A stretch of DNA of 64,000 nt from Alphaproteobacteria bacterium. Lineage in GTDB: Bacteria; Pseudomonadota; Alphaproteobacteria; Rickettsiales; SXRF01. The DNA is taken from positions 89,037 to 153,036 of the forward strand of contig JANRJW010000014.1 of assembly GCA_033763775.1 (NCBI GenBank), written 5' to 3'. A program made the position numbers and the translations under genes. The notes beneath the pieces are model-generated. The model made no database searches. It saw nothing but the letters and a program-made list of their open reading frames with translations, and was not told the origin of the DNA. Positions within the stretch are counted from its first letter, which is position 1; every line of letters begins with the position of its first letter. This document shows positions 2,395-47,243 of this stretch, in pieces.

Positions 2395-3501
2395 ATGACC
2401 ACCTACATCCTTCGCCGCCTGCTGCTGATGATTCCCACCTTGTTTGGGATCATGGTGCTGAATTTCGTGATTGTTCAGGCCGCGCCGGGCGGGCCGGTGG
2501 AGCGCATGGTCGCACAGCTGACCGATGTCACCGGCAGTGATGCGACCAGCCGCATCAGCGGCGCGGGCGGGTCGGATACGCTATCGCGAACCGATATACG
2601 GGTTGGTGATATGTCCTCCATCTATCGCGGCGCGCGCGGGCTGGATCCGGAGCTGGTGGAGCGCATCGAGAAAATGTATGGGTTTGATAAGCCCGCGCAT
2701 GAGCGTTTTTTCCTGATGATGAAAAGCTACCTGACGCTGGATTTCGGCGAGAGTTTTTACCGCAATGAATCAGTCATCTCGCTGATCGTGAATACGCTGC
2801 CGGTGACCATCTCGCTGGGGCTGTGGACGACACTCATCATCTACCTCATTTCCATTCCGCTCGGCATCCGAAAAGCGGTTCGCGATGGCTCGCGCTTTGA
2901 TGTGGCGACCTCGTGGCTCATCATCATCGGCTATGCTATTCCCAGCTTTCTGTTTGCGATCGTGCTGATTATTTTATTTGCCGGCGGTCAGTACTTTCAG
3001 ATTTTCCCGATGAAAGGCCTCCTGTCCGATAACTGGGAGGAGCTGTCGCTGCTTGGAAAAATAAGCGATTATTTCTGGCACATCACCCTGCCGGTTGCAG
3101 CCATGGTGATTTCCGGCTTTGCCTCGCTCACCATGCTCACCAAAAACTGCTTCCTGGAGGAAATCAGCAAGCAATATGTGCTGACCGCCCGCGCCAAGGG
3201 GCTCACCGAAAATCAGGTGCTTTACGGCCATGTATTTCGCAATGCCATGCTGGTAGTGATTGCCGGGCTGCCGGGCGCGCTGCTTCGCATTTTATTTACC
3301 AGTGCCCTGCTCATTGAGATTATTTTTTCCTTAAATGGCCTTGGCCTGCTTGGCTATGAGGCGGTAGTGAACCGCGACTATCCGGTGATGTTCGGCACGC
3401 TGTTTATTTTCACGCTGCTCGGCCTCATCACCTCGCTCATCGGCGACATCATCTACATGCTCATCGATCCGCGCATTGATTTTGAAAGGCGCGGTGCATG
3501 A
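2395..3501 (+). CDS. yejB: ABC transporter permease, YejB-like
   Basis: 368 aa. [34 protein letters not shown] is a typical DppB/YejB N-terminus. Multi-pass membrane protein in operon context. Confidence 0.85.
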
Positions 3502-4379
3502 GCCTGATATCCAGCGAACCATTCGTGCCGCACAGCTTCGCCCATATCGAGGAAAAGCGCGTCTTTCCAAAAGGCGCGGTGCCGGAGATCGCCTATAACA
3601 AATTCCTACGCGACTACGAAGCGCTGGAAGGCGTAAGCACAAGGCGCATCACCTATCAAAACGATGGCCTCACCATCACCGGCCTCATAGTGCTGCCGGA
3701 AAAGGTAAGCGCCCGAAATCACCCCCTCCTCATCTTCAACCGCGGCGGCAGCCGGGATTACGGCAAGCTCACGGTGGTAAACGTGCTGCGCCACATGGCA
3801 CCGTTTGCCAAGGCGGGCTATCTGGTGTTTGCCTCCAACTATCGCGGCAATGATGGCGGCGATGGTCAGGATGAATTTGGCGGCCGCGATGTCGGCGATG
3901 TGCTGGCGCTGCTGGATATTGCGCGCGCGCATGAAGCATTCGATGGCAAGCGTGCCTTCATGCTCGGCCATTCGCGCGGCGGCATGATGACGATGATGGC
4001 GCTGCGCGAAAAAGCCGCCGTGAAAGCGGCGGTGGTGCTCGCCGGCGTGTCGGATGTGCGCCGCTCAGCGCGCGAGCGCCCGGAGCTGCAAACAGCAGTG
4101 TTTGAGCGGCTTTTCCCCACCGGTGATCTCGACAAAGAATTTGAAAAACGCTCCTCCGTTGCGTGGGCAGATGAGATTGAAACGCCAGTGCTGCTGCTGC
4201 ACGGCGATGCCGATGAGGCCGCGGCAGTGGGGCATAGCATCGCACTTGCCGAAGCACTAGAGCGCGCTGGGAAAAAACACGCGCTGCATATTTACCCGCG
4301 CGGCAACCATTCGCTTTACCGCGTGTGGGATGATGTCATGGCTCGCTCACTGGGCTGGTTTGAGGAGCATGCTGTATGA
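3498..4379 (+). CDS. alpha/beta serine hydrolase (S9 prolyl-oligopeptidase / dienelactone-hydrolase-like)
   Basis: 293 aa with GHSRGG nucleophile elbow, LLLHGDAD and GNHSL (Ser-Asp-His pattern). Its ATG overlaps the yejB stop (ATGA). Confidence 0.7.
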
Positions 4380-10545: not shown

Positions 10546-12431
10546 GCTACGATTTTGACGTCATCATCATCGGCGGGGGCCACGCAGGAACAGAGGCGGC
10601 AAGCGCGGCAGCACGCCTTGGCGCGCGTACGGCGCTGATTACACAAAAGGCCACCACTATCGGTGAAATGTCATGCAACCCCGCTATTGGCGGCATCGGC
10701 AAAGGCACATTGGTGAGGGAAATTGACGCGCTGGATGGCGTCATGGGGCGCGCAATCGACCGCGCAGGCATCCATTACAAAATGCTCAATAGCAGCAAAG
10801 GCCCGGCTGTTCGCGGCCCACGCGCCCAGGCCGACCGCAAACTCTATCGCCAGGCCGTTCAAGAGATTCTCCGCGAATACGAACATCTCACCATCATCGA
10901 AGATTCCGTCGAAGACTTGCTTTTACATCCCCGCGCAAGCGGCGATCCTGTAGCTGCCATTAGCGGAATCCTCACTGCCTCTGGCCGTGAAATCCGCGCG
11001 CCGAAAATTGTCCTGACCACCGGCACTTTTCTTAATGGCCTGATCCATCTCGGCGAAAAGAAAATCCGCGCGGGCAGGGTGGGGGAGGCTCCCTCGATTG
11101 GCCTGTCAAACACACTCAAACGCATTGGTTTTAATACCGGCCGCTTAAAGACAGGAACGCCGGCACGCCTTGATGGCAAGACAATTAACTGGGGGATTCT
11201 AGAAGAACAAAAAGGCGATGAGCCGCCAACGCCATTTTCATATCTGACTGAGCGCGTTTCCGTGCCGCAGATATCCTGCTTCATCACTCACACAAGCCCC
11301 ACCACCCACGGAATCATCAGGGAGAATCTGCACCGCTCGCCAATGTATTCCGGCCAGATAGAATCTACTGGGCCGCGCTATTGCCCATCGATTGAAGACA
11401 AGGTGGTTCGCTTCGCTCACCGGCAGCGCCACCAGATTTTCCTTGAGCCGGAAGGGCTCGATGATGACACGGTTTACCCCAACGGCATTTCTACGTCGCT
11501 GCCGGAAGAAGTTCAGCACGCCCTCATAAAGACCATTCCGGGGCTTGAAAACGCGATTATACTTAGACCCGGTTATGCCATTGAATATGACTATGTCGAC
11601 CCACGCGAACTAAAGCCAACACTCGAAACCAAGAAGGTGAGTGGGCTTTATTTCGCTGGCCAGATCAATGGCACCACGGGCTATGAAGAAGCAGGAGGGC
11701 AGGGGGTAGTCGCCGGGCTGAACGCGGCCTTAGCGGCTGGTGGCTCTAAGCCGTTTATCCTTGATCGCTCGGACGCTTATATAGGAGTGATGATTGATGA
11801 CCTGATTACCCATGGCACCACTGAACCATACCGTATGTTTACATCGCGTTCAGAGTATCGCTTATCTCTGCGTGCCGATAATGCCGATCTTCGCCTGACC
11901 TCGCGCGCTATCGATATGGGGTGTGTCTCATCCCCTCGAGCCGCTATCTATAGAGAAAAGGAAGTTATCCACAATGTTTCACGTGAAACATTTTTGAACC
12001 TCTCCATGACGCCCAATGAAGCAATGGCTTACGGCATCAAATTAAATCAGGATGGCATTCGAAGAAATGCTCTTGAGCTACTTTCAAACCCCAACATCAC
12101 CTATGATGATCTGGTCAGACGGTGGCCACAGCTCGGAGAAATTAGGCCGGATATAAAAGAGCAAATCGAAATTGAGGCGATGTATAGCGGCTATCTTGAT
12201 CGTCAGATGGAAGATATTGAAAGCTTCAAAAAAGAAGAAAAAATGCTGATTCCTGAGAACTTTGATTTTGATCCACTACCTTCGATATCTAACGAGATCA
12301 AGGCCAAGCTCAAGGCTGCCCGCCCCGCGACCATTGGTTCTGCCAGCCGCATCCAAGGCATGACGCCGGCCGCGCTTGTAGCACTCATGGCGCATATCCG
12401 CAAATCGGAGCAGCTGAAAAAAAGTGCGTGA
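10542..12431 (+). CDS. mnmG: tRNA uridine 5-carboxymethylaminomethyl modification enzyme MnmG (GidA)
   Basis: 629 aa. [19 protein letters not shown] motif, [24 protein letters not shown] overlap with mnmE. Confidence 0.95.
11975..11990. promoter_or_regulatory. parS: parS centromere-like ParB-binding site (perfect TGTTTCACGTGAAACA), inside mnmG
   Basis: Exact match to the canonical 16-bp parS palindrome; flanks extend it to aatgtttcacgtgaaacattt. Confidence 0.85.
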
Positions 12432-13092
12432 AGATTGGTTTCACCAACTAAACCAGATCGAAAATGTTTCACGTGAAACATTTTCACGCCTATGTATCTA
12501 TCATGATCTGCTGGTTAAATGGCAAAGCAAAATCAATCTGGTAAGTCAATCGACAATAGCCGGCGCCTTCCACCGACACATCATCGATTCCTACCAGCTC
12601 GTTCCCATCATCAAAAAGCTCAAAAATGTTTCACGTGAAACATTTTCACTCGCCGATATCGGAACCGGCGCCGGTTTTCCGGGTATGGTTCTGGCGATCG
12701 TAGGGGCAGGGGATGTCCATCTCATTGATACCGATATAAAGAAGATGACTTTCCTGAGAGAGGTAAGTCGCTTAACGAAAACGAATGTGAACTTTCACCA
12801 ACAAAGAATTGAGTCCTGCCAACTACCAGAAACTGATTGTTTCACTTCACGTGCCACTTCAAGTTTGAGTGATTTGATCGAATGGGCATCCAAAAATGTT
12901 TCACGTGAAACATTTTTTCTCTTCCATAAGGGCAAAAACTATTCTAGTGAGTTAGATGAACTGAAAAGCAAATGGTCATTCGACCATCAGCTTTTTCCAA
13001 GCGTGACAGACCCTAGCGGGGTCATCATTCATCTATCCCATGTTGCGAGGCTGCCCGATGAAAACTCCGAACCAGCTGGAAAAAAACAATAA
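12424..13092 (+). CDS. rsmG: 16S rRNA (guanine527-N7)-methyltransferase RsmG (GidB)
   Basis: VSRET...[31 protein letters not shown]-binding motif. Position between mnmG and parA. GTG start. Confidence 0.85.
12465..12480. promoter_or_regulatory. parS: parS site (perfect TGTTTCACGTGAAACA), inside rsmG
   Basis: Exact consensus palindrome within aaaatgtttcacgtgaaacatttt. Encodes NVSRETF. Confidence 0.85.
12627..12642. promoter_or_regulatory. parS: parS site (perfect TGTTTCACGTGAAACA), inside rsmG
   Basis: Exact consensus palindrome. Encodes a second NVSRETF just before the SAM motif [10 protein letters not shown]. Confidence 0.85.
12897..12912. promoter_or_regulatory. parS: parS site (perfect TGTTTCACGTGAAACA), inside rsmG
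   Basis: Exact consensus palindrome. Encodes a third NVSRETF. Confidence 0.85.
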
Positions 13093-16956: not shown

Positions 16957-17017
16957 GCCGGCGAAAGCCGGCATCCAGATTTGATAAGAACTGGATCCCC
17001 GGTTTCGCGGGGATGAC
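16952..17017. repeat. Family-A element (66 bp) at the leuS-lptE junction
   Basis: gtc-atgccggc-gaaa-gccggcat-ccag...ctgg-atccccg-gttt-cgcggggat-gac. Termini gtcat/atgac are inverted. Confidence 0.85.
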
Positions 17018-17023
17018 GATATT

Positions 17024-24879: not shown

Positions 24880-25791
24880 CTAAACGGCTTCTGCGCCGCT
24901 GATAATTTCGATGAGTTCTTTGGTAATCGCCGCCTGACGGGTGCGGTTGTATTTGAGGTTGAGTTTTTTGATCATATCGCCGGCGTTGCGCGTGGCATTA
25001 TCCATCGCGGTCATGCGCGCGCCCTGCTCGGAGGCAGCATTTTCCAGAAGCGCACGATACACCTGCACGCTTAAGTTTTTCGGCAGCAGCTCGGCGAGGA
25101 TGTCCTCCTCAGAGGGTTCGTAGTCGTAAGAAGTGGCGAGTGATGAGTGGTGAGTGGTGAGTGTGTCGTTGGAAGGTTTCTCGCCACTCGCTACTCGCCA
25201 CTCGCTACTCAAAGGAATAAGCTGCTGCCATGTCACTTCCTGCGCGATGGCGGATTTGAATTTGTTGTAGACGATGTGACACACATCAAACTCGCCGGCC
25301 GCAAACCACTCGCGAATCAGCAGCGCCACCGGCTCTGCATCCGCAAACGTCACTTTCTTTTTCGGCAGGTCGAAATCGCCCGCGAAATAAGGCTGAAATT
25401 CAAGGCGCATCATGTCGCGCCCTTTGCGACCCACATAAAGCAGCTTCACCTGCTTACCCTGCGCGACCAGCTCACGCGCCTTGCGACGCGCACTGCGCAC
25501 AATCGAGCTATTGAACGCACCGCAAAGGCCGCGATCACCCGTTGCCACCACAAGGAGAATTTTATCCTGCTTACCCGTTCCAACTAAAAACGGATTGGTG
25601 GAGGTGTCGCGCTGGGACGCAGCGAGGCTCGCAATCATGTGCTCCATGGCTTCCGCGTAGGGACGCGCATTTTCTGCCGCCTCTTTCGCACGGCGAAGTT
25701 TCGCCGCTGCCACCATCTTCATCGCTTTGGTGATCTTCTGCGTCGATTTGACCGACTTGATACGGACTTTAAGGTCTTTGAGGCTAGGCAT
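24880..25791 (-). CDS. atpG: F1 ATP synthase gamma subunit
   Basis: [35 protein letters not shown]...[11 protein letters not shown]. Confidence 0.92.
25132..25209. repeat. Heptamer-arm palindrome (GTGAGTG type), about 78 bp, in frame inside atpG
   Basis: Left arm agtggcgagtgatgagtggtgagtggtgagtg; right arm ctcgccactcgctactcgccactcgctact. Read as [26 protein letters not shown] sister copy is in priA at 31390-31472. Confidence 0.85.
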
Positions 25792-26015
25792 CAGAGTCTC
25801 AGTTCTTGGAGTTTGTGATTGCTCTGGTTTTCATAGGTAATTGAATCTCCCAACTGTTGCTTGGCATTGAGTAAATCAACGCCATAAACATCACCCTGGC
25901 CAGACATTTCAATAACCGCATCCTTGCAAATTTTTATCTTCTTTGTGTCATTATTTGGCGCGGCTTTGAATCGTATGTAGCCAAAATTCTTATCCATATC
26001 GTACATGATTTTCAT
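25791..26015 (-). CDS. DUF2283-like small protein
   Basis: 74 aa. [16 protein letters not shown]...[15 protein letters not shown] fits the DUF2283 pattern (M-I-YD...YI...G-IGIEIL-A). ATGA overlap with the upstream ORF and TGATG overlap with the atpG start. Confidence 0.6.
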
Positions 26016-26566
26016 TTGCGTCCCCTTTCAGGAATCGTCACGCGCTCATTCTCAGGAACGCCAAGCTCTTCTAGAAGCTTGTTTAGACCACCGACTAAAT
26101 CTTCGAGTGTTTTAGCGGCGATAAATTTGCTGTAATTTTCAGTTGTTGATGCACCGCGCGCTTCCATCTGCGCTTTTTTATCATCTTCTTCAACCGGCGT
26201 GAATGCCTCATCAAACTTGAAAGTCTTATGTTTAATTTCTGAGAGTCTTTTTTTCAGCTGAAGATTGATATTATGCAGCATCTCGTCTGCGTTATTATCA
26301 ATCGCATCGGCATGCTCGCGTGCCTCCTTTTCAGTCTTAAAAAGTGATTTGAAATGCTCTCTTGCTTGATCAAGCGATAACCCAATATCAAATTCCAGCG
26401 CAGGGCCGTCAGCAGAGTCGGTGAATTTTGTTTGGACCAGTTTATCCGTATCGAGATAAATGCCCGGCAACTCGCCAAGAGCCTTAAACGCGCGCGCGAG
26501 TCCCTGATGAAGCCGGCGATGCGTTTCATCAGTAATATCGGCTAGGTATTTTAATTCTTCGCTCAT
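26012..26566 (-). CDS. hypothetical acidic protein (184 aa), no recognised family
   Basis: ORF from the ATG at 26566, 4 nt after the atpA stop. Lower GC than the flanks. The ORF-track TTG at 26590 would overlap atpA. Confidence 0.55.
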   Translation of the reverse strand: MSEELKYLADITDETHRRLHQGLARAFKALGELPGIYLDTDKLVQTKFTDSADGPALEFDIGLSLDQAREHFKSLFKTEKEAREHADAIDNNADEMLHNINLQLKKRLSEIKHKTFKFDEAFTPVEEDDKKAQMEARGASTTENYSKFIAAKTLEDLVGGLNKLLEELGVPENERVTIPERGRK

Positions 26567-26570
26567 GCTA

Positions 26571-28100
26571 TCAGGCAAACCTTTTCGCAATCTGCATGAT
26601 GACTGTTTTCAGACGATCTTCGATGGCATCATCCAGCTTCTGACTTTTTTCAATGTCGCTGATGATGTCTTTGCTCGCACCGCGCAGCTCAGCCAGCAGC
26701 GCCTGCTCGAACTTGCCCACTTCTTTGGTTGGGATGCCATCCAGATAGCCTTTCACACCGGCATAAATCACGCAGACCTGCTCAGGCGTGGAAAGCGGCG
26801 AGTATTGCGGCTGTTTGAGCAGCTCGGTGAGGCGCTGGCCGCGCGCGAGCAGCTTCTGCGTTGCGGCGTCAAGGTCGGAGCCGAACTGGGCGAAGGCTTC
26901 CATCTCGCGGTACTGCGCGAGCTCAAGCTTGATCGAACCTGCCACCTGCTTCATCGCCTTAATCTGCGCGGCAGAACCCACGCGCGATACCGACAGACCC
27001 ACGTTCACCGCCGGACGCACGCCTTTGTAGAACAGGTCGGTCTCAAGGAAGATCTGGCCGTCGGTGATCGAGATCACGTTGGTGGGAATATAGGCCGAAA
27101 CGTCACCCGCCTGGGTTTCAATCACCGGCAGGGCGGTGAGGCTGCCCGCCTTCATATCATCCGACATTTTGGCGGCGCGCTCAAGCAGGCGCGAGTGAAT
27201 GTAGAACACGTCGCCCGGGTAAGCTTCGCGTCCCGGCGGACGGCGCAGCAGCAGCGACATCTGGCGATACGCCACCGCTTGCTTGGAAAGATCATCATAA
27301 ATGATCAGCGCATGCATGCCGTTATCGCGGAAATATTCACCCATCGCACAGCCCGTGTAAGGCGCGAGGAATTGCAGCGGCGCTGGCTCAGAGGCGGTCG
27401 CAGCCACCACGATCGAGTACTGCATCGCGCCTTGCTCTTCGAGCTTTTTCACCACCTGCGCTACCGTCGAGCGCTTCTGGCCGATACAGACATAAATACA
27501 ATAGAGTTTCTTGCTTTCGTCGGAGCCAGCGTTGGCCGCTTTCTGGTTAAGGATCGTATCAATCGCAATCGCGGTTTTGCCGGTCTGGCGATCGCCGATG
27601 ATGAGCTCCCTCTGGCCACGGCCAATCGGAATCAGCGAATCAATCGCCTTGATACCAGTCGACATCGGCTCATGCACCGATTTACGCGCGATAATGCCCG
27701 GCGCTTTCACTTCCACACGCGCACGGGTGACATCTTTCAGGGGGCCTTTGCCATCAATCGGATTACCGAGCGCATCCACCACGCGGCCAAGCAGACCCTT
27801 GCCCACCGGGCAGTCCACAATCGCGCCGGTACGCTTCACCGTGTCGCCTTCTTTTACCTGACGATCATCACCGAAAATCACCACGCCGACATTGTCAGAC
27901 GCAAGGTTCAGCGCCATACCTTTCAGACCACCCGCAAACTCCACCATCTCGCCGGCCTGCACATTTTCAAGGCCGTAGATGGTGGCGATACCGTCACCCA
28001 CCGAGACCACCTGGCCGGTTTCCGACAGCTCTGCCTGCGGGCTGAATGATAAAATCTGCGCCTTGAGGATGTTTGAAATTTCCGATGCCTTGATATCCAT
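26571..28100 (-). CDS. atpA: F1 ATP synthase alpha subunit
   Basis: 509 aa. [15 protein letters not shown] Walker A; conserved throughout. Confidence 0.98.
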
Positions 28101-29863: not shown

Positions 29864-31987
29864 CTACAAAAACCCCACCGGATCGATATCTATCTTAATA
29901 CGCACGGAAGAGGGCGGTTTTACCGATTCCAACCAGCCGCTCATCAGCTCCGGCAGATTCACCTTGCGATCCGCGCGCACGAGAAGGCGCCAGCGATAGA
30001 GGCCGCGCAGGCGATAAAGCGGAGCAGGGGCGGGGCCTAGTAGGCGGATGACGGATGACGGATGACGGATGACAGGAAAACTAGCCGCAAGCTGCTTGGC
30101 TGTTTTGATGACCGCATCTTCTTTGCTGCCTTCCACAATTACGGCGGCAAGGCGAGCAAAAGGCGGCATCTTCGCGCTTTCGCGGGCGGCAAGTTCGGCC
30201 GCCACAAACTGATCGCGATCATTTGACGCCAGCGCCTGCATGACCGGATGATCCGGCTGGTAGCTCTGCAGATAGACCACGCCCGGGATTTGCTCACGCC
30301 CAGCGCGGCCAGACAGCTGGTGAAGCAGCTGATAGGTTTTTTCCGCCGCGCGCAGATCGCCGCCGCCAAGGCCTAAATCGCCATCCACCACCCCCACCAC
30401 CGAAAGCCCGCCAAAATGATGCCCCTTGGCGATCATCTGCGTGCCAATCAGCAGGTCGAGTTTTTTTTGTTCCATATCCGAAATAATTTGCGCCGCTTCC
30501 TTATTACCCGTCAGCTGGTCACTCGCCATCACCGCGATGCGGGCTGTTGGAAACAGCGCGCGCGCCTCCTCTTCAATGCGCTCCACACCGGGGCCACACG
30601 CCGCCAGCGACTCTTTCTCACCGCACGCCGGACAGACGGGTGGCAGCGGCTCGCGGTGGTGGCAGTGGTGACATTGGAGGAAGGGCTTTGGGCTTTGGGC
30701 TTTGGGCTCTGGTAAAGCAAAATCTCCCTGAAGCCTGGAGCCTGAAGCCTGAAGCCCATGCAACACCAGCCAGCTTGAACACTCCGCGCACTCAAAGCGG
30801 TGGCCGCAATGGCGACATAGCACCAACGGCGCATAGCCGCGCCGGTTGAGGAAAAGGAGCGCCTGCTCGCCGCGCGCGATGGCACTCGCCACTGCATCGC
30901 GCAGCTTTGGTGAAATGAACTGCGTGGCCGGCATTTTCTCGAGCCGCATATCGATCAGCTGCGTGGTGGGCAGGCAGGCGCCGCCGTGGCGCGCGGGCAG
31001 GCGCAGCTCGGCATATTTTCCTTGCTGGGCATTCAATACACTCTCCAGCGAAGGCGTGGCTGAGGCCAGTACCACCGGTATTTTTTCAAACCGCGCCCGC
31101 GAAACCGCCATATCGCGCGCATGGTAAATCACCTGGTCTTCCTGCTTGTAGGCCTGGTCGTGCTCTTCATCCACCACGATCAGCTTCAGGTTTCGGTAGG
31201 GAAGAAACAACGCTGAGCGCGCGCCCACCACCACCGGCGCAGCGCCGCTGGCAATCGCTTTCCACGCCTCACGTTTTTGTGCAGGCGTGACATGCGAATG
31301 CCATACCAGCGGGCGAAAGCCAAAGCGCGCTTCAAACCGCGCCATCCACTGCACGGAAAGAGCGATTTCGGGAAGGAGAATGAGAATTTGTGAGTGACGA
31401 GTGGCAAGTGGTGAGTGGTGAGTAATAGTATCTTTTTCTTTCTCGCCACTCGCCACTTGCCACTCGCCACTCAGCGCCTGCGCGATCGCCTCAAAATACA
31501 CCTCCGTCTTGCCTGAGCCAGTAACGCCATCGAGCAGCGTGACGGAAAAACCAGCTGCTAGTTTTTGGATGAGCGCATCCGCCGCCGCACGCTGGGCAGG
31601 CGAGAGCGTGGCAAGTTGGTAAGAATGGGATTGGGGATTCGATGCATTCTTTTTTCTTCCCCTAACCCCTAATCCCAAATCCCTAATCCCTAGCGGCAGC
31701 GCCATTTTCAGCATCAGGCCGGCCGGCGCACAATTATACCACGCCGCCCATTTTATAAATTCAATGAAATGCGGAGCAAAAGATGGCGCATCCAGCTTCT
31801 CGATCACCGCTTTTAGTTTCGCCTGCGGAATGTTTGCCGTGCCCGCACCCAGCACCAGACCAAGCGACGAGGCGCGCCCAAACGGCACACGAACGAGATC
31901 GCCACGTTCAAGCGCCATCCCATCTGGCACTACGTAGTCAAACCCGTGCGCCACGCCGGTAGGAAGTAGCACCTCAACTTGTTTCAT
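29864..31987 (-). CDS. priA: primosomal replication-restart helicase PriA
   Basis: [14 protein letters not shown] Walker A, DEEHD, Cys-rich zinc region [14 protein letters not shown]...CHHCHH...CPACG. Confidence 0.9.
30046..30073. repeat. Four perfect tandem heptamers (ggatgac x4) inside priA
   Basis: Direct reading. The complement gtcatcc equals the Family-A terminus. Read as IRHPSSVIR. Confidence 0.9.
30683..30757. repeat. Heptamer-arm palindrome, about 75 bp, inside the priA zinc-finger region
   Basis: gggcttt x3 plus gggctct, spacer, then gaagcct/ggagcct/gaagcct/gaagccc. Read as [25 protein letters not shown] between the two Cys clusters. Confidence 0.8.
31390..31472. repeat. Heptamer-arm palindrome (GTGAGTG type) in frame inside priA
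   Basis: gtgagtgacgagtggcaagtggtgagtggtgagt / ctcgccactcgccacttgccactcgccactc. Read as [25 protein letters not shown]. Confidence 0.85.
31622..31693. repeat. Heptamer-arm palindrome (TTAGGGG/ATTGGGG type), about 72 bp, inside priA
   Basis: aatgggattggggattcgatgcatt / cccctaacccctaatcccaaatccctaatccctag. Read as [24 protein letters not shown]. Confidence 0.8.
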
Positions 31988-40064: not shown

Positions 40065-41002
40065 GAAGGTTTGCGCCCAAGAAGTGTGCCAACATGCGCA
40101 AGCCACGCCTGCTCAAACGCCTCGGCGCTGTAATGTTTTGCCGTCTCCATGCCCGCCGCCGCGCAGCGCTCGGCCAACGCCTCATCCATCATCGCGCGGT
40201 GAACAATGTCTGCGAGCGAGCCGAGCTCACGGTAAGAACAGGTGAGCGAGTTTTCGCCGTAGCGCAGATAATCACGCCCGGCCAAACCATCCAGCCCGGT
40301 CACCATCGTGCCAAGCGCCATCGCTTCGAGCGGCACCAGCCCGAATCCTTCGGCAATGGTGAGATTGATAAGATAGCGCACCGAAGCCAGACGTTGCTGA
40401 AATTCTGTCCGCGATAGCTCCGTGCCCGTCACCAGCTGATCCAGCCGCACATCCGGCGCGCGGCGCGCCATGGCGGTGGCGAGAAAATGATACAGAATCG
40501 CCGTATCCGGTCCATCGCGCTTGATGAACACCAGCGCCGAATGCGCCGGCCGATCGCGCCATGGCGGCAGCGCCAGGCCGGGCTCAACCATCGCAAAAGG
40601 CGCCGTCACCGGCGCGGTGATGCCCCACACCGAGGCGAGATAGCGCTGCACCGTGGTGCTCGCCGCGACATAAAGATCAAACTGCCCATCAAGCACGCCA
40701 TGGGTATTAAATCCCTGCACATACATGATTTTGCGCCCGGGCAGACGCGCGCCAAAAAGAAAATTAGAAAAAGCCGGCGCGCTGACCAGCAGGTCATCAT
40801 CCGTCATCTGATCGTCCAGCTGCTGCAAGCTGCAGCGCTCCATCGGATGATCATAGGTAAAGGGCGAGACCTTGCCGCGCTGCACCTCAACATCCACCAA
40901 CCGGTAGCCAAAACGCATGCTAATCAGCCTGCCAAGGCGGTAAAGCATGTAGGCGCCACCCGCCGGCAGACTTGCACCTATTACATAAACACTGGTCGTC
41001 AT
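40061..41002 (-). CDS. glycosyltransferase, GT-B group 1 (GT4-like)
   Basis: 313 aa. EGFGLVPLEAMALGTMV (E-x7-E motif). Confidence 0.7.
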   Translation of the reverse strand: MTTSVYVIGASLPAGGAYMLYRLGRLISMRFGYRLVDVEVQRGKVSPFTYDHPMERCSLQQLDDQMTDDDLLVSAPAFSNFLFGARLPGRKIMYVQGFNTHGVLDGQFDLYVAASTTVQRYLASVWGITAPVTAPFAMVEPGLALPPWRDRPAHSALVFIKRDGPDTAILYHFLATAMARRAPDVRLDQLVTGTELSRTEFQQRLASVRYLINLTIAEGFGLVPLEAMALGTMVTGLDGLAGRDYLRYGENSLTCSYRELGSLADIVHRAMMDEALAERCAAAGMETAKHYSAEAFEQAWLAHVGTLLGRKPS

Positions 41003-41236
41003 TGCTTTATAAAAATCTGATTAATCTACATATTTTACTCTGTCTTAACCATCATGACAATTCTGAAAATAGCTTTTGCAGCACCTTCACATATTTGTCA
41101 CAAATAAATGCTTCAGATTATCCACAGGCTAGGCTAATGTTTCACTATCAGATCTGTGATCTGGTTATGTCTATTTGTGACGGTTCCTAAACCTAGGGAC
41201 AAATAGTTTTTCTAACGTTAGTAAAAAGGTAGTTTT

Positions 41237-41578
41237 ATGAAAACCCAAACTAAAGACTTAAGCATCGCATGGCAGGCTTGCCTGATGGTGATGCTGACCG
41301 CCATCGTGATCTCGATGCCGGAACTTGCTATGGCCAACTCCAACACCCCGATGGGTAACGTGCTGTGTACGGTAGTTGCATGGTTCACCGGCAACACCGG
41401 TAAAGGCCTTGCCACCATCGCGATCACCGTAATCGGTATCGGCGCACTCCTCGGTAAAGTATCCTGGGGTATGGCGATCATCGTTGGTATCGGCGTTGCG
41501 ATCGTATTCGGTGCCGCAGGCATCGTGAACACGATGGGCGCTGGCGGTGGTTCTACCCAGACTTGCGTTACTTCCTAA
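41237..41578 (+). CDS. virB2: VirB2/TrbC-family type IV secretion pilin
   Basis: Long leader ...PELAMA, then NVLCTVVAWFTGNTGKGLATIAITVIGIGALLGKVSWGMAIIVGIGVAIVFGAAGIV. This aligns well from memory with Agrobacterium VirB2 (two hydrophobic segments). Confidence 0.8.
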   Translation: MKTQTKDLSIAWQACLMVMLTAIVISMPELAMANSNTPMGNVLCTVVAWFTGNTGKGLATIAITVIGIGALLGKVSWGMAIIVGIGVAIVFGAAGIVNTMGAGGGSTQTCVTS

Positions 41579-41605
41579 TCGTAAGATTGGTAAAGCCAAG
41601 AAAAA

Positions 41606-41633
41606 CCCTGCCGAGCAATCGGCGGGGTTTTTT
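41606..41633 (+). terminator. Rho-independent terminator-like hairpin after virB2
   Basis: ccctgccg-agcaat-cggcgggg followed by tttttt, about 30 nt after the stop. Confidence 0.65.
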
Positions 41634-41669
41634 GTTGTTTGATACATCTGCACTTCGTATGCTGACTCC

Positions 41670-43124
41670 ATGAACATGCGCTATTTTCCACACAGTTTGG
41701 TCGTTCTTGTTTTTGGTATTGCGGTTCTTTTCGCTTTTGCCAATCAGACAGTCATTTTTCAAGACCCTGATACACTATGGCATATACGTGCCGGAGACCT
41801 GATCCGCCAGCATGGCATTGATAGCAATGAGCCCTGGTCGTGGACAGCGGGTGATTATCCATGGATCAATATTGCCTGGCTACCCGACATCGCGATGAGC
41901 TGGCTCTATGAGCTGGGTGGTTTAAGTTTACTCGCTGCCTGTACGTTGATCCTCTTTACCCTGGTCATTGCATCACTCGCTGCTATCGGCTTGAAACTTA
42001 AAGCAACAATAAGCATTATGGCATTGCCGCTTTTTTACAGCGCCGGCATCCTTGCCGAGGGAATGCTGGCACGGCCGCAGCTACTCAGTCTGCTATTTGC
42101 TGCTGCCGTATATGCGCTGTTGCGTTTTGCGCATACTCGCACGCTCTTGTGGCTGCTGCCGCTCTACTTGCTATGGAGTAATAGCCATGGGGGCTATATC
42201 ACCATGTTTGTTATCATTGGTATGTTCTTCATTGAGGCAGTGGTACAAAACCAGACGACGAAAGCGAAATGGCTTGCATTGATTGCCGCTGGCTGCGCTC
42301 TGTTGACTCTCGCTAACCCTTATGGGGTGCACATCCTCAGCGCCACGCTTGCCGTGCTGAGCACCCCTGCCAATCAGTTGCTGCATGAATGGCAAACTAC
42401 AGCACCAGCGCAATATCTCTACCTGCTCGGATGGCTTGTGCTGATGGTGATTGCTGGTGGCATGCGCAGCAAAGAGATTCCTCTCGCCGATAAGCTGCTT
42501 GCAATATTCTGGCTGGTAATGGCGATGGCGTCGCTACGCATGACTTACTTCGCCGCTATTTTCAGCTTCCCCTATCTGGTGCAGGCGCTAAGTGCATGGC
42601 AAAAAACCCTTCCGACGCTGACGAAAGATTTTCAAGCGCTGAGTAGTGATCCAATGCGCTGGAAAATATCGCTTACCGCAGTGGCCTTGATTGTCTTCTT
42701 ATTGTCACCCTGGCGCAGCTATATTCTGAGTGATATAAGCTTGCCCGAACATATCGCACCCAAAGTGGAGGTGGAGTTTCTTGCTGCGAATTATCCCCAG
42801 CTGAAACTAATGAACCACTATGATTTTGGCGGCTATCTGATTTATCGACGCGACCTTGGCCTTGAGCCATTCATCGATGGACGCGCAGAAACAGCCTACC
42901 CGCGAACGCTGATTATTGATTATTTTGTTCTCCAGAAATTAGATATTGGTTGGGAAAAAGTAGCAGCCGACTATGGTATTCAAGCGTTCCTATTGCCCCT
43001 GAAAGACAAGGATGGCATATCGCGCTCACCGCAAATTGCTATACTGGATCAGTCACCGCAATGGAAACGCGTTTTCACCGGCGATATTGCGGCGGTTTAT
43101 ATTCATCGAAATCTGAGCAGATAA
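41670..43124 (+). CDS. polytopic membrane protein, possible GT-C-fold glycosyltransferase
   Basis: 484 aa, more than 10 predicted TM segments. Acidic first-loop motif FQDPDTLWHIRAGD and a soluble C-terminal domain. Family not identified with certainty. Confidence 0.45.
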   Translation: MNMRYFPHSLVVLVFGIAVLFAFANQTVIFQDPDTLWHIRAGDLIRQHGIDSNEPWSWTAGDYPWINIAWLPDIAMSWLYELGGLSLLAACTLILFTLVIASLAAIGLKLKATISIMALPLFYSAGILAEGMLARPQLLSLLFAAAVYALLRFAHTRTLLWLLPLYLLWSNSHGGYITMFVIIGMFFIEAVVQNQTTKAKWLALIAAGCALLTLANPYGVHILSATLAVLSTPANQLLHEWQTTAPAQYLYLLGWLVLMVIAGGMRSKEIPLADKLLAIFWLVMAMASLRMTYFAAIFSFPYLVQALSAWQKTLPTLTKDFQALSSDPMRWKISLTAVALIVFLLSPWRSYILSDISLPEHIAPKVEVEFLAANYPQLKLMNHYDFGGYLIYRRDLGLEPFIDGRAETAYPRTLIIDYFVLQKLDIGWEKVAADYGIQAFLLPLKDKDGISRSPQIAILDQSPQWKRVFTGDIAAVYIHRNLSR

Positions 43125-44792
43125 TCATGGCCTGATACGCTCATAATAAATGAAGCGAAGCTGGTTTTTATCGTTGAGCGCTGCCTCTGTAGCAAGAATA
43201 GAGGCGCTGCCTTTAAATTTTTCATAATATAAACGCAACACTGGGAGCAATTCTTGTGGAACATCGATGTAGCGCTCAACCATTCGATAATTATTGGTAA
43301 ACTCAGGAAGCGCATGCATGCCATGGTCACTGAGGAAAGCAGGTTTCTTTGCGCCCCAAATGTGTCCAAAAATAATATAATCTGGCCTTCGAGACAAAAC
43401 ATATTGCCCATCACCCTTGAGATGCCCCACGACATAGGCAGTGAAATCATCTGGAACAACCGCGGCATCATAGGGCTTTCTCGCTATATATTTATCATTA
43501 AGCCCTAGCATATCAATATAGCGAAACTGAGGCGCTATATAAGGTAAAGCACCGGCAGGGTTGATCGCAATCAACGATCCTGACGGCCAGTTTTCACTGA
43601 TGTAAGGCCCTGCCGATAGCCCCGAAATTGCGCCTTTTGATAAATAATCATCTAATTCAACATAACCAAACTGTAAAATAGAAAGCACGATCATCGCACC
43701 AGAGAAATCTCGAAAATACCTTTCGTTTTTTTCTATTAGCCAACCTGCTGTGTAAAAAATAAATATCGCCAGAAGCGGAATGATCGGTACATAAAAACGC
43801 AAATATTTCATGTGATCACCGCCACTGGTAATCACATGCCAGAAGAGCGCAGTTATCAACAGCAAGAGATAAAAAGCTGTGCGAGATTTTAATGCATAAT
43901 CACGGATCATCCAGAAGAGCACAAGCACCGCAAGAGGCAGCAAAGGTGGCACATAAAATATTTGAAAGATATAAAACCAGCCAAGGCGAGTCAGCAGATC
44001 GGCAGGAATGCCATACACTTTGGCATAGTACGTATTAGGCAGGAAATCGCCATACATATGGTATTTCCACGCCATCCACGGCGCAAAAAGCAGCATGAAG
44101 CCAAAAAAGAGCAGCATCAGGCGCGAAAAATCGAGATATTTGCGCTGCGATGGCAGCAGCCAGAAAAGCCCAAGCACAATGCCGGTGATGCCCCAGATCA
44201 TGAGGCCTTCCATGCGCGTCATGGTCGCAAGCGCAAAGAGGACACCGGTTAAAAACACCATTTTTTTGCTCAGGCCAAACTCAAGCCAGTACAGCACGAG
44301 GCAAACAGCACCGGTGAGTAGAAAGCTGAAAAGAACGGCCTCCAGCCCGCCCATCACCCATGCGAGCACCGGCACCGCTGAGGCGACAAGCCCAACGCAT
44401 AGCGCGGCATTAATCTGATGGGCGTAATATTTCTCGCTGCTGGCAAATTTCCGCCGGTACATGGTCTGCGTAAAGCCATAAAGCACCGCCAGTAAGGCAA
44501 AATATCCCGCAAAGCTAACCACACGAGTTGCGAGTACCAGATCCATGCCCAGCCAGCCAAGAGCGGCAATCAGCACCATGTAAAGAAAGTTCGAATAGCC
44601 CTCAACCGGCTCATCGCCGCGGCTCCACACGAGGCCGTAGCCCTCGAGCCAATTGCGCGCATAGACCAGTGTGATGTAGGAATCATCCTGATAAAAGCCG
44701 CGCGTAAACCACCATACGACCAGCGCAATCGCAGCGCTTTGAAGGTAAATATAGGCAGGCGGCCAATGCGCTTTTTTAGGAAGCGCTGCCAT
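43125..44792 (-). CDS. GT-C-fold membrane glycosyltransferase (ArnT/PMT/arabinofuranosyltransferase-like)
   Basis: 555 aa. N-terminal FYQDDSYITLVYARNWLEGYGLVWSRGDEPVEGYSNFLY is typical of DD-motif GT-C enzymes. Many TM segments and a C-terminal soluble domain. Confidence 0.6.
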   Translation of the reverse strand: MAALPKKAHWPPAYIYLQSAAIALVVWWFTRGFYQDDSYITLVYARNWLEGYGLVWSRGDEPVEGYSNFLYMVLIAALGWLGMDLVLATRVVSFAGYFALLAVLYGFTQTMYRRKFASSEKYYAHQINAALCVGLVASAVPVLAWVMGGLEAVLFSFLLTGAVCLVLYWLEFGLSKKMVFLTGVLFALATMTRMEGLMIWGITGIVLGLFWLLPSQRKYLDFSRLMLLFFGFMLLFAPWMAWKYHMYGDFLPNTYYAKVYGIPADLLTRLGWFYIFQIFYVPPLLPLAVLVLFWMIRDYALKSRTAFYLLLLITALFWHVITSGGDHMKYLRFYVPIIPLLAIFIFYTAGWLIEKNERYFRDFSGAMIVLSILQFGYVELDDYLSKGAISGLSAGPYISENWPSGSLIAINPAGALPYIAPQFRYIDMLGLNDKYIARKPYDAAVVPDDFTAYVVGHLKGDGQYVLSRRPDYIIFGHIWGAKKPAFLSDHGMHALPEFTNNYRMVERYIDVPQELLPVLRLYYEKFKGSASILATEAALNDKNQLRFIYYERIRP

Positions 44793-45472
44793 TAATAGAC
44801 GCCTGGCTTATTCGTGAAGGTGCCAATCACCTCGCCCTTTGCCAGCACATGCGGCTGAATGATATCTTCCACATATTGCCCGCCAAACAGGCCAGAAAGA
44901 TTCACCGACGGCACCGAAAGCGCATACACCGTGAAATGGTAGCGGTGAAGACGCGTATCATTCCATGGCGGGCAGGGGCCATCATAGCCGCCATGCGGGC
45001 CTTCGCCCATGAAGCGCGCATAATCATTCTGCCCAACCACACCGTAAGCACGCTTGCCTAGCTCTTTACCCCCTTTGGTGATGCCGCGGCTATCTGCCCC
45101 CTCGGCAATGGCGACCATGGTGGAGGGAATATCCACCAGCACCCAGTGGTAGAAATTCTGCCGAGGAAATTCGCGCGGAATGACTTTACCCTCCTGATTC
45201 GCCAGCTCAAAGCTCTGGGGCACATCGCGATCGACCACCAGAATCACATAAGACTTCGTGCCTTCCGGCGCGCCCGACCATTCAATCGATGGATTAATGT
45301 TCTGGCCATCTTTGGTTTTTCCCTGACCATCAGGAATGCAGTAAGCAAAGCGCTCGGGGATGGGTTTGCCATTCTCAATGCCACCCACTTTCACCGTGAG
45401 CTTGGCGGGCTCCTGCGCAAGGGCGGGGGAGGCAAGCGTCATCGCGATCAAGGCTGGAAGAATGAATTTCAT
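44792..45472 (-). CDS. YbhB/YbcL-family phosphatidylethanolamine-binding (PEBP) protein with signal peptide
   Basis: MKFILPALIAMTLASPALA; PSIEWSGAPEGTKSYVILVVDRDVP...YHWVLVDIP...GPCPP...HRYHFTVYAL. Its stop overlaps the GT-C start (TAATG). Confidence 0.8.
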   Translation of the reverse strand: MKFILPALIAMTLASPALAQEPAKLTVKVGGIENGKPIPERFAYCIPDGQGKTKDGQNINPSIEWSGAPEGTKSYVILVVDRDVPQSFELANQEGKVIPREFPRQNFYHWVLVDIPSTMVAIAEGADSRGITKGGKELGKRAYGVVGQNDYARFMGEGPHGGYDGPCPPWNDTRLHRYHFTVYALSVPSVNLSGLFGGQYVEDIIQPHVLAKGEVIGTFTNKPGVY

Positions 45473-47127: not shown

Positions 47128-47135
47128 GTTGCGTT

Positions 47136-47243
47136 GTCATCCCCGCGAAAGCGGGGATCCAGTCTAAGCCGTGATTAGTGACGAAAGAATTTTTTTCCTC
47201 GCTGGCGCGAGTAACGCTGGATTCCTGCTTTCGCAGGAATGAC
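47136..47243. repeat. Family-A element (108 bp), intergenic
   Basis: gtc-atccccgc-gaaa-gcggggat-ccag ... ctgg-attcctgc-tttc-gcaggaat-gac. Confidence 0.9.

Follow-up and report, generated by a model that had tools for sequence, protein, structure and literature searches.

The subject of this study is a pair of additional open reading frames (ORFs) located between atpA and atpG in the F1 ATP synthase operon of an uncultured alphaproteobacterium (order Rickettsiales), on a stretch of 64,000 nucleotides (nt) of contig JANRJW010000014.1, positions 89,037 to 153,036, from assembly GCA_033763775.1 (hereafter, the window). We consider it probable that the two ORFs form a promoterless passenger cassette of toxin-antitoxin (TA) ancestry, which occupies a clade-specific insertion/replacement hotspot at the atpA/atpG boundary. 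ORF1 (26566-26012, minus strand) encodes an acidic orphan protein of 184 aa, counted from its ATG, and ORF2 (26015-25791, minus strand) encodes a 74-aa protein that appears to be a diverged member of the antitoxin-type DUF2283 family. The left flank of the pair is atpA, the gene for the F1 alpha subunit (28100-26571, minus strand), a 509-aa ORF with 99.4% identity to AtpA of the closest relative, locus L002; the right flank is atpG, the gene for the F1 gamma subunit (25791-24880, minus strand), a 303-aa ORF with 90% identity to AtpG of L002. Three features make this locus unusual: the recurrent colonization of the alpha/gamma boundary, the splicing of the inserted genes into a chain of translational coupling, and an orphan protein family restricted to the slot.

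The gene order confirms the presence of two extra ORFs between atpA and atpG, as proposed in the initial annotation of this DNA, and all three of the tight junctions described there can be read in the sequence. The atpA stop codon TGA is followed by four nucleotides (TAGC) and then by the ATG of ORF1; ORF1 and ORF2 overlap in ATGA, with a Shine-Dalgarno-like GGGGA motif located 7 nt 5' of the ORF2 ATG; and the stop codon of ORF2 overlaps with the atpG start codon in TGATG. The segment was also suspected to be AT-rich and foreign, which agrees with a GC content of 0.41-0.43 in the insert versus 0.55-0.62 in its flanks (300-nt windows), and with a GC content at third codon positions (GC3) of 0.42 in ORF1 and 0.45 in ORF2 versus 0.66-0.70 in atpH, atpA, atpG and atpD. 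The arrangement is unlikely to be an assembly artefact because a Logan contig that was assembled independently from run DRR729085 shows 100% identity over 1,891 bp of the atpA'-ORF1-ORF2-atpG' region; this run may also underlie the assembly of the window. A consensus scan revealed no promoter or terminator signal inside the insert above the shuffled background. The same scan, a weak test when taken alone, gave no promoter-like minus-strand site in or before the cassette that would correspond to the own promoter of a type II TA module, and the count for the region was not above that of the shuffled sequences. With such tight junctions and no internal promoter or terminator above background, co-transcription and translational coupling of the cassette with the F1 genes, as suggested initially, would be the natural reading.

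We surveyed 160 alphaproteobacterial loci and determined the atpA-to-atpG distance in each of them, including 80 loci from species-representative genomes collected with AtpG as a query and 80 metagenome loci collected with an alignment of the AtpA C-terminus. The window's own clade comprises 15 loci, with AtpA approximately 81-99% identical over the part available, and its metagenome-assembled genomes are labelled as Rickettsiales or Alphaproteobacteria. Within this clade, protein-coding inserts occupy 9 of the 15 slots, one slot holds a hairpin only, and five slots are empty, with gaps of 2-15 nt between the two genes (L004, L005, L006, L087 and L095). Among the approximately 145 more distant loci, an insert was found in only one, and the gap in all others is at most 237 nt, which upholds the premise that atpA and atpG are normally contiguous. 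The single exception is L012, from a more distant lineage (AtpA 70% identical), where the slot encodes a protein of 287 aa that has a DUF2610 domain at its N-terminus (407-1270).

The slot contents differ widely among the members of the clade. L002, L003, L085 and L086 carry a DUF4258 gene followed by a DUF2283 gene; the window carries ORF1 and a DUF2283 gene; and L082 has an ORF1-like gene alone. In L083 (3240-3667) and L097 (2438-2859), the slot contains a gene for a 126-aa protein of the 23S_rRNA_IVP family (PF05635, 133 bits), flanked by inverted repeats of 29-33 nt that are made of 14-nt tandem units. The hairpin-only slot of L084 is a 112-nt inverted repeat (684-795) of the same style, possibly the empty shell of such an element. 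Finally, L088 (3250-3804) encodes a 184-aa signal-peptide-bearing (secreted) protein, which has no family match and is unrelated to ORF1. The cargo types are distributed patchily on the AtpA and AtpG neighbor-joining trees, with empty-slot genomes scattered among occupied ones, and the GC3 of every cargo is below that of the atp genes of its host. The window pair is best described as one state of what appears to be a clade-wide insertion/replacement hotspot, rather than a one-off insertion. The presence of complete DUF4258-DUF2283 pairs in the exact slot of the closest relative and three other clade members also lends strong indirect support to the earlier proposal that an addiction-type cassette takes shelter within an essential operon. 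No variants of the slot DUF2283 or DUF4258 genes were found on plasmids or viral contigs, exact-sequence look-ups of the window AtpA and AtpG returned no strain variants of the slot, and a search of the literature that could be queried turned up no description of genes inserted at the atpA-atpG junction.

The assignment of ORF2 to the DUF2283 family is based on two lines of comparison. ORF2 matches the Pfam DUF2283 model (PF10049) over its entire length (model positions 1-49 of 49) with 20.2 bits and an E-value of 6.6e-4, relative to a gathering score of 23 bits. It is also 37-47% identical, end to end, to the slot DUF2283 proteins of L002, L003, L085 and L086, which score 40.7-50.4 bits against PF10049; the motifs GYIRFK and G..YG(I/V)(E/D)L are common to ORF2 and these homologs, and the conserved residues of the family are kept in ORF2. 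Because the full-length alignment connects it with homologs above the family threshold, ORF2 can be regarded, by transitivity, as a diverged member of DUF2283, which sustains its initial description as a DUF2283-like protein. DUF2283 (YuzE) has been described as a predicted antitoxin (PMC12521503). PMC4755241 was disregarded here, since its "DUF2283" refers to the FseA/QseM proteins and seems to be another DUF number. Its slot partner in the four relatives, DUF4258, is listed as a BECR-fold toxin family of the RelE/ParE superfamily with unknown target (PMC11980606), and one DUF4258 member was reported to be MqsR-like by Foldseek (bioRxiv 10.64898/2025.12.20.695498).

The replacement of the slot contents is evident from the comparison of the window with L002, which was made at fourfold-degenerate sites and by DNA alignment. 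The atpA, atpD and atpG genes of the two genomes show approximately 15-23% divergence at fourfold-degenerate sites (identity of 0.85 in atpA and 0.83 in atpD). Their DNA can be aligned up to the last atpA codon, and the final codons and stop codon of atpA mark the left breakpoint. The alignment resumes 42 nt 5' of the atpG ATG, and between these points ORF1 takes the place of the L002 DUF4258 gene. The right breakpoint is marked by the conserved 3' tail of ORF2 (25833-25791, minus strand), which includes its last 14 codons and the stop codon. The last 42 nt of ORF2 are identical to L002 (42/42), and the 74-nt block that combines the last 14 DUF2283 codons with the first 32 nt of atpG (25791-25760, minus strand) matches at 73 of 74 positions, whereas the DUF2283 core is 58% identical, with an identity of 0.40 at third positions. 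Since the core differs much more than the backbone does at neutral sites, ORF1 and the DUF2283 core form a block that was exchanged and did not arise by divergence in situ. The conserved tail is not part of the Pfam domain and is located directly 5' of atpG, and in the other lineages the corresponding DUF2283 tail codons (QEITL) spell an AGGAA motif; the tail probably doubles as the translation-initiation region of atpG.

The first 32 nt of atpG form a direct duplication that flanks inserted DNA in two relatives. In L086, a perfect 32-nt direct repeat (3244-3275 and 3792-3823) brackets the DUF4258-DUF2283 pair, and in L002 the two copies (3862-3893 and 4001-4032) bracket a palindromic mini-element (3894-4000). 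The end points of the repeat are identical in L086 and L002; among 154 loci, only these two have the atpG start in duplicate. Because these duplications bracket inserted DNA, the entry point of such DNA lies at the 5' end of atpG, with regeneration of the gene start. The duplications could equally result from a targeted mechanism or from one ancestral duplication followed by cargo turnover. No repeats were found that bound the window's own cassette, and no recombinase was recognized among the ORFs beside the window operon, as judged by reading of their translations.

The L002 mini-element, which has CATTCCCGCGAAAGCGGGAATCCAG arms and resembles miniature inverted-repeat transposable elements, sits between the homolog of ORF2 and atpG. 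Four copies of this mini-element occur in the window, including those at 1580-1661, 16989-17019 and 47132-47241, with 0 expected by chance, and its other copies have no long flanking repeats. Two mini-ORFs were observed next to DUF4258 genes. In L086, the upstream copy of the atpG start opens a 16-codon mini-ORF (3244-3291), which ends a short way into the DUF4258 gene and may act as a leader that couples the toxin gene to atpA. In L003, a strongly hydrophobic 34-aa mini-ORF (3383-3487; MTSLLGFIAFVCAIVGIFFSSQATLGIVIICAPD) starts on the atpA stop codon (TAATG), 5' of the DUF4258 gene, and may represent either additional cargo or a degenerate atpG-start copy.

The product of ORF1 is acidic, as noted initially (isoelectric point of 5.25; 37 aspartate and glutamate residues versus 28 lysine and arginine residues), and searches of Pfam, NCBIfam, PADLOC and PHROGs assigned it to no family, giving only sub-threshold noise. 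A word-indexed search of 5.8 billion proteins recovered nothing but ORF1, whether queried with one sequence or with a two-sequence profile. Its sole relative, P0003 (172 aa, 33% identity, E-value 2.4e-12), was detected by a full HMMER search of 1.84 billion cluster representatives, which makes one relative among approximately 15 billion proteins in total. No further relatives were detected by tblastn against plasmids and phages or in a scan of viral contigs. P0003 is encoded on L082, a 1,117-bp contig from run SRR28552076, between the 3' end of atpA and the 5' end of atpG. Its ATG follows the atpA stop codon after 2 nt, its stop codon overlaps with the atpG start codon in TAATG, and there is no DUF2283 gene beside it in this slot. 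Judging from these two contigs, both known members of the ORF1 family (n = 2) sit in the atpA-atpG slot.

ORF1 and P0003 share an N-terminal block (ITDETHxxLHxGLxxAFKxLxxxPGI) and a C-terminal block (AKTLxDLxxGxNxLLxxLGV), which are kept despite heavy divergence of the underlying DNA, and the codon positions of ORF1 display the coding-like order GC1 > GC3 > GC2. The conserved blocks and this pattern argue that ORF1 is a real protein-coding gene. The GC3 values of ORF1 and P0003 are 0.42 and 0.35, compared to 0.70 and 0.76 in their own atpA genes. A single-sequence AlphaFold2 (AF2) model of ORF1 was poor, with a predicted local distance difference test score (pLDDT) of 41; the model from the two-sequence alignment reached moderate confidence (pLDDT 65, predicted template modeling score 0.50) and suggests a long N-terminal helix, a beta hairpin, more helices, and a disordered acidic segment at residues 114-144. 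Foldseek searches with the two-sequence model gave no match in PDB (best E-value 0.9) or BFVD (best E-value 0.16), and a sequence-profile search of PDB found nothing. In both ORF1 and P0003, ten variable codons precede the ITDETH block; it is speculative that the first 32 nt of the two genes represent a decayed copy of the atpG start (p ~0.02-0.1 for the alignment relative to shuffled sequences).

Several candidate identities of ORF1 were examined and rejected. ORF1 is not a diverged DUF4258 protein, as it lacks a PF14076 match and its hhalign probability against the slot DUF4258 profile is 0.1%, in keeping with the initial remark that the partner of ORF2 differs from DUF4258. A relationship to the 184-aa occupant of the L088 slot was likewise tested and rejected, and so was an origin of ORF1 as a mimic derived from the gamma subunit (hhalign probability of 0.5% against AtpG).

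As a passenger cassette, the ORF1-ORF2 pair would have no expression signals of its own and would be transcribed from the atp promoter by read-through. Its translation would proceed along a coupling chain from the atpA stop codon to ORF1, then to ORF2 through the ATGA overlap and to atpG through the TGATG overlap. ORF1 would have taken over the context of the atpG start found in empty-slot genomes, namely the AtpA C-terminal codons, a few nucleotides and an ATG, and atpG would probably depend on re-initiation after ORF2. Such a dependence would penalize the imprecise loss or nonsense mutation of the cassette, aiding its persistence beside any addiction effect. The expected role of ORF2 is that of DUF2283 proteins in general, a small partner that binds and neutralizes. 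ORF1, an orphan that evolves fast, would have displaced the DUF4258 toxin gene, either as harmless cargo or as a new partner of ORF2 or toxin, and the cassette would have no part in ATP synthase function.

Some observations weigh against this interpretation. Both ORF1-family members occur in the tightly coupled atpA-atpG slot, which a functional tie to F1 would predict as well. There is no toxin gene in the window, which leaves any current addiction activity only putative, and the occurrence of an ORF1-like gene alone in L082 would be an unexpected state for a DUF2283-dependent toxin. Neither a recombinase nor att-type sites or terminal repeats could be detected beside the cassette of the window, the 32-nt duplications of L002 and L086 may go back to one ancestral event instead of marking a recurrent target, and the expression and translational coupling of the cassette are deduced from its sequence.

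Two other explanations are conceivable but clearly less likely. According to the first of them, ORF1 is a novel toxin and ORF2 its cognate antitoxin, an active new TA pair that was swapped as a co-adapted unit for DUF4258-DUF2283. ORF1 indeed holds the position and the ATGA coupling that DUF4258 has in the relatives, ORF2 retains the conserved residues of its family, and the replacement covers ORF1 and the DUF2283 core but leaves out the shared tail, as expected if the core sets partner specificity. On the other hand, the only ORF1 homolog, P0003, stands alone and is coupled directly to atpG with no DUF2283 gene, the acidic character and the disordered acidic middle segment of ORF1 are atypical of small type II toxins, and ORF1 has no recognizable toxin fold or motif. 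The second explanation, to which we assign a similarly low likelihood, views the atpG 5' end of this uncultured clade as a dedicated docking site for promoterless mini-cassettes, each of which regenerates the first 32 nt of the gene and joins the alpha-to-gamma coupling, an integron-like "operon parasite" system without an integrase; the ORF1 family would then be specific to the slot, acting as a new toxin partner of DUF2283 or on F1.

It is improbable that ORF1, with or without ORF2, is a lineage-specific accessory protein, inhibitor or assembly factor of the F1-ATPase, co-expressed stoichiometrically with alpha and gamma. Such a role would fit the location of both ORF1-family members only between atpA and atpG, with their starts and stops within the coupling chain, as well as the conservation of the N- and C-terminal blocks at 33% identity, a sign of purifying selection on a protein. 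However, ORF1 is absent from L002 despite its nearly identical AtpA and from most clade members, five of which have empty slots, and unrelated genes of selfish type occupy the same slot in others. The GC3 of ORF1 and P0003 is strongly foreign relative to their atpA genes, ORF1 diverges far faster than its atp neighbors, and it is unlike the F1 regulators and assembly factors in Pfam, unlike AtpG, and unlike any solved structure. The alternative of a new F1 accessory or regulatory pair, raised in the initial annotation, is therefore disfavored by the empty slots and unrelated cargo of the clade, as well as by the lack of similarity to known F1 factors and the fast evolution of ORF1.

The least probable explanation regards ORF1 as a frame that is decaying or without function, left over from inserted DNA and maintained open solely for ribosome passage to ORF2 and atpG: its near absence of relatives, the low confidence of its single-sequence AF2 model and its poorly conserved first 10 codons, which may be a relic of the duplicated atpG start (weak, with the p-value given above), are outweighed by the improbability of a 184-codon open frame in 45% GC DNA (~3e-5 per start, a base-composition estimate), the protein blocks kept in P0003 despite heavy DNA divergence, the coding-like order of GC content at its codon positions, and the rise of the AF2 pLDDT to 65 with just two sequences.

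Among known systems, the closest to the passenger cassette are the DUF4258 (PF14076)/DUF2283 modules. Similar to them, the window has two small genes overlapping in ATGA, with ORF2 as a downstream DUF2283 gene that shares a 4-nt overlap with the upstream gene, and complete modules are present in the exact slot of four relatives (L002, L003, L085 and L086). In contrast to these modules, the window lacks a DUF4258 gene and has in its place an unrelated 184-aa orphan, approximately twice the size of the DUF4258 proteins (83-87 aa); the window pair has no recognizable promoter of its own and no DNA-binding antitoxin domain, and it lies inside an essential operon instead of being free-standing. Because the DUF4258 partner was tested for and is absent from the window, we do not classify the pair as a member of this module type; we describe it as a derivative of a DUF4258/DUF2283 module with a displaced toxin.

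Integron gene cassettes are promoterless units at a fixed site, where a promoter further upstream drives their expression. The slot units bear a functional resemblance, and only a functional one, to such cassettes, since they are small, promoterless and interchangeable, occupy a fixed position with read-through expression, and are bounded by short direct repeats in two relatives. Unlike in integrons, no integrase or attC-like folded sites were found at the slot, the slot repeat corresponds to the initial 32 nt of a housekeeping gene, and the units are joined to a chain of translational coupling. In relatives, the same slot is occupied by insertions of the PF05635 type and those resembling Rickettsia palindromic elements (L083 and L097, and the hairpin-only L084), and related hairpin repeats are found in frame in atpG and priA of the window. 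The ORF1-ORF2 pair differs from these insertions in lacking terminal inverted repeats and a PF05635 domain. As for F1 regulators and assembly factors, ORF1 and ORF2 are similarly small and would be co-expressed with the F1 genes, whereas the pair is not conserved among close relatives with the same enzyme. None of the zeta/DUF1476, IF1, Atp11, Atp12, AtpI and epsilon families appeared at E-values up to 1 in Pfam and NCBIfam, and ORF1 had no sequence or fold matches in PDB. To our knowledge, no known F1 regulator or assembly factor is encoded between atpA and atpG.

If the passenger-cassette interpretation is correct, the atpHAGDC operon, which is usually treated as fixed, can serve in one lineage as a recurrent landing pad for selfish small genes. 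These passengers would borrow the transcription and translational coupling of the operon, so that the expression of the essential gamma subunit comes to depend on translation of the passenger, a coupling-based mode of retention that would differ from classical post-segregational killing. Toxin displacement and DUF2283 partner specificity can also be studied at this locus along a natural series of states, comprising the empty slot, the TA pair, the toxin-replaced pair and the orphan alone. In all likelihood, the biology of the slot reflects the housekeeping of selfish elements and not new bioenergetics, and a synteny survey is needed before operon-embedded orphans are called new enzyme subunits.

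The remaining genes of the F1 operon, all on the minus strand, are atpH (28768-28214), atpD (24861-23431) and atpC (23355-23116). Hairpin elements with 30-35-nt inverted arms made of ~7-nt tandem units (GAGTGGC-type) are located in frame inside atpG (25132-25209) and priA (31391-31473). They resemble in-frame insertions of Rickettsia palindromic elements, and the same loop of AtpG holds different inserts in relatives. Given these in-frame hairpins and the slot occupants of the relatives, the lineage is tolerant of small selfish insertions in and around essential genes.

Two further features of the window were observed at a distance from the F1 operon. An 18-nt palindrome, ATGTTTCACGTGAAACAT, occurs in four perfect copies (11974-11991, 12464-12481, 12626-12643 and 12896-12913) within mnmG and rsmG (gidA and gidB), where none is expected by chance and each copy is read in frame as NVSRETF; the location of these copies just upstream of parA suggests an origin-proximal region. 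A second low-GC stretch (0.43-0.50), at positions 41000-44800, encodes large multi-pass membrane proteins of 484 aa and 555 aa.

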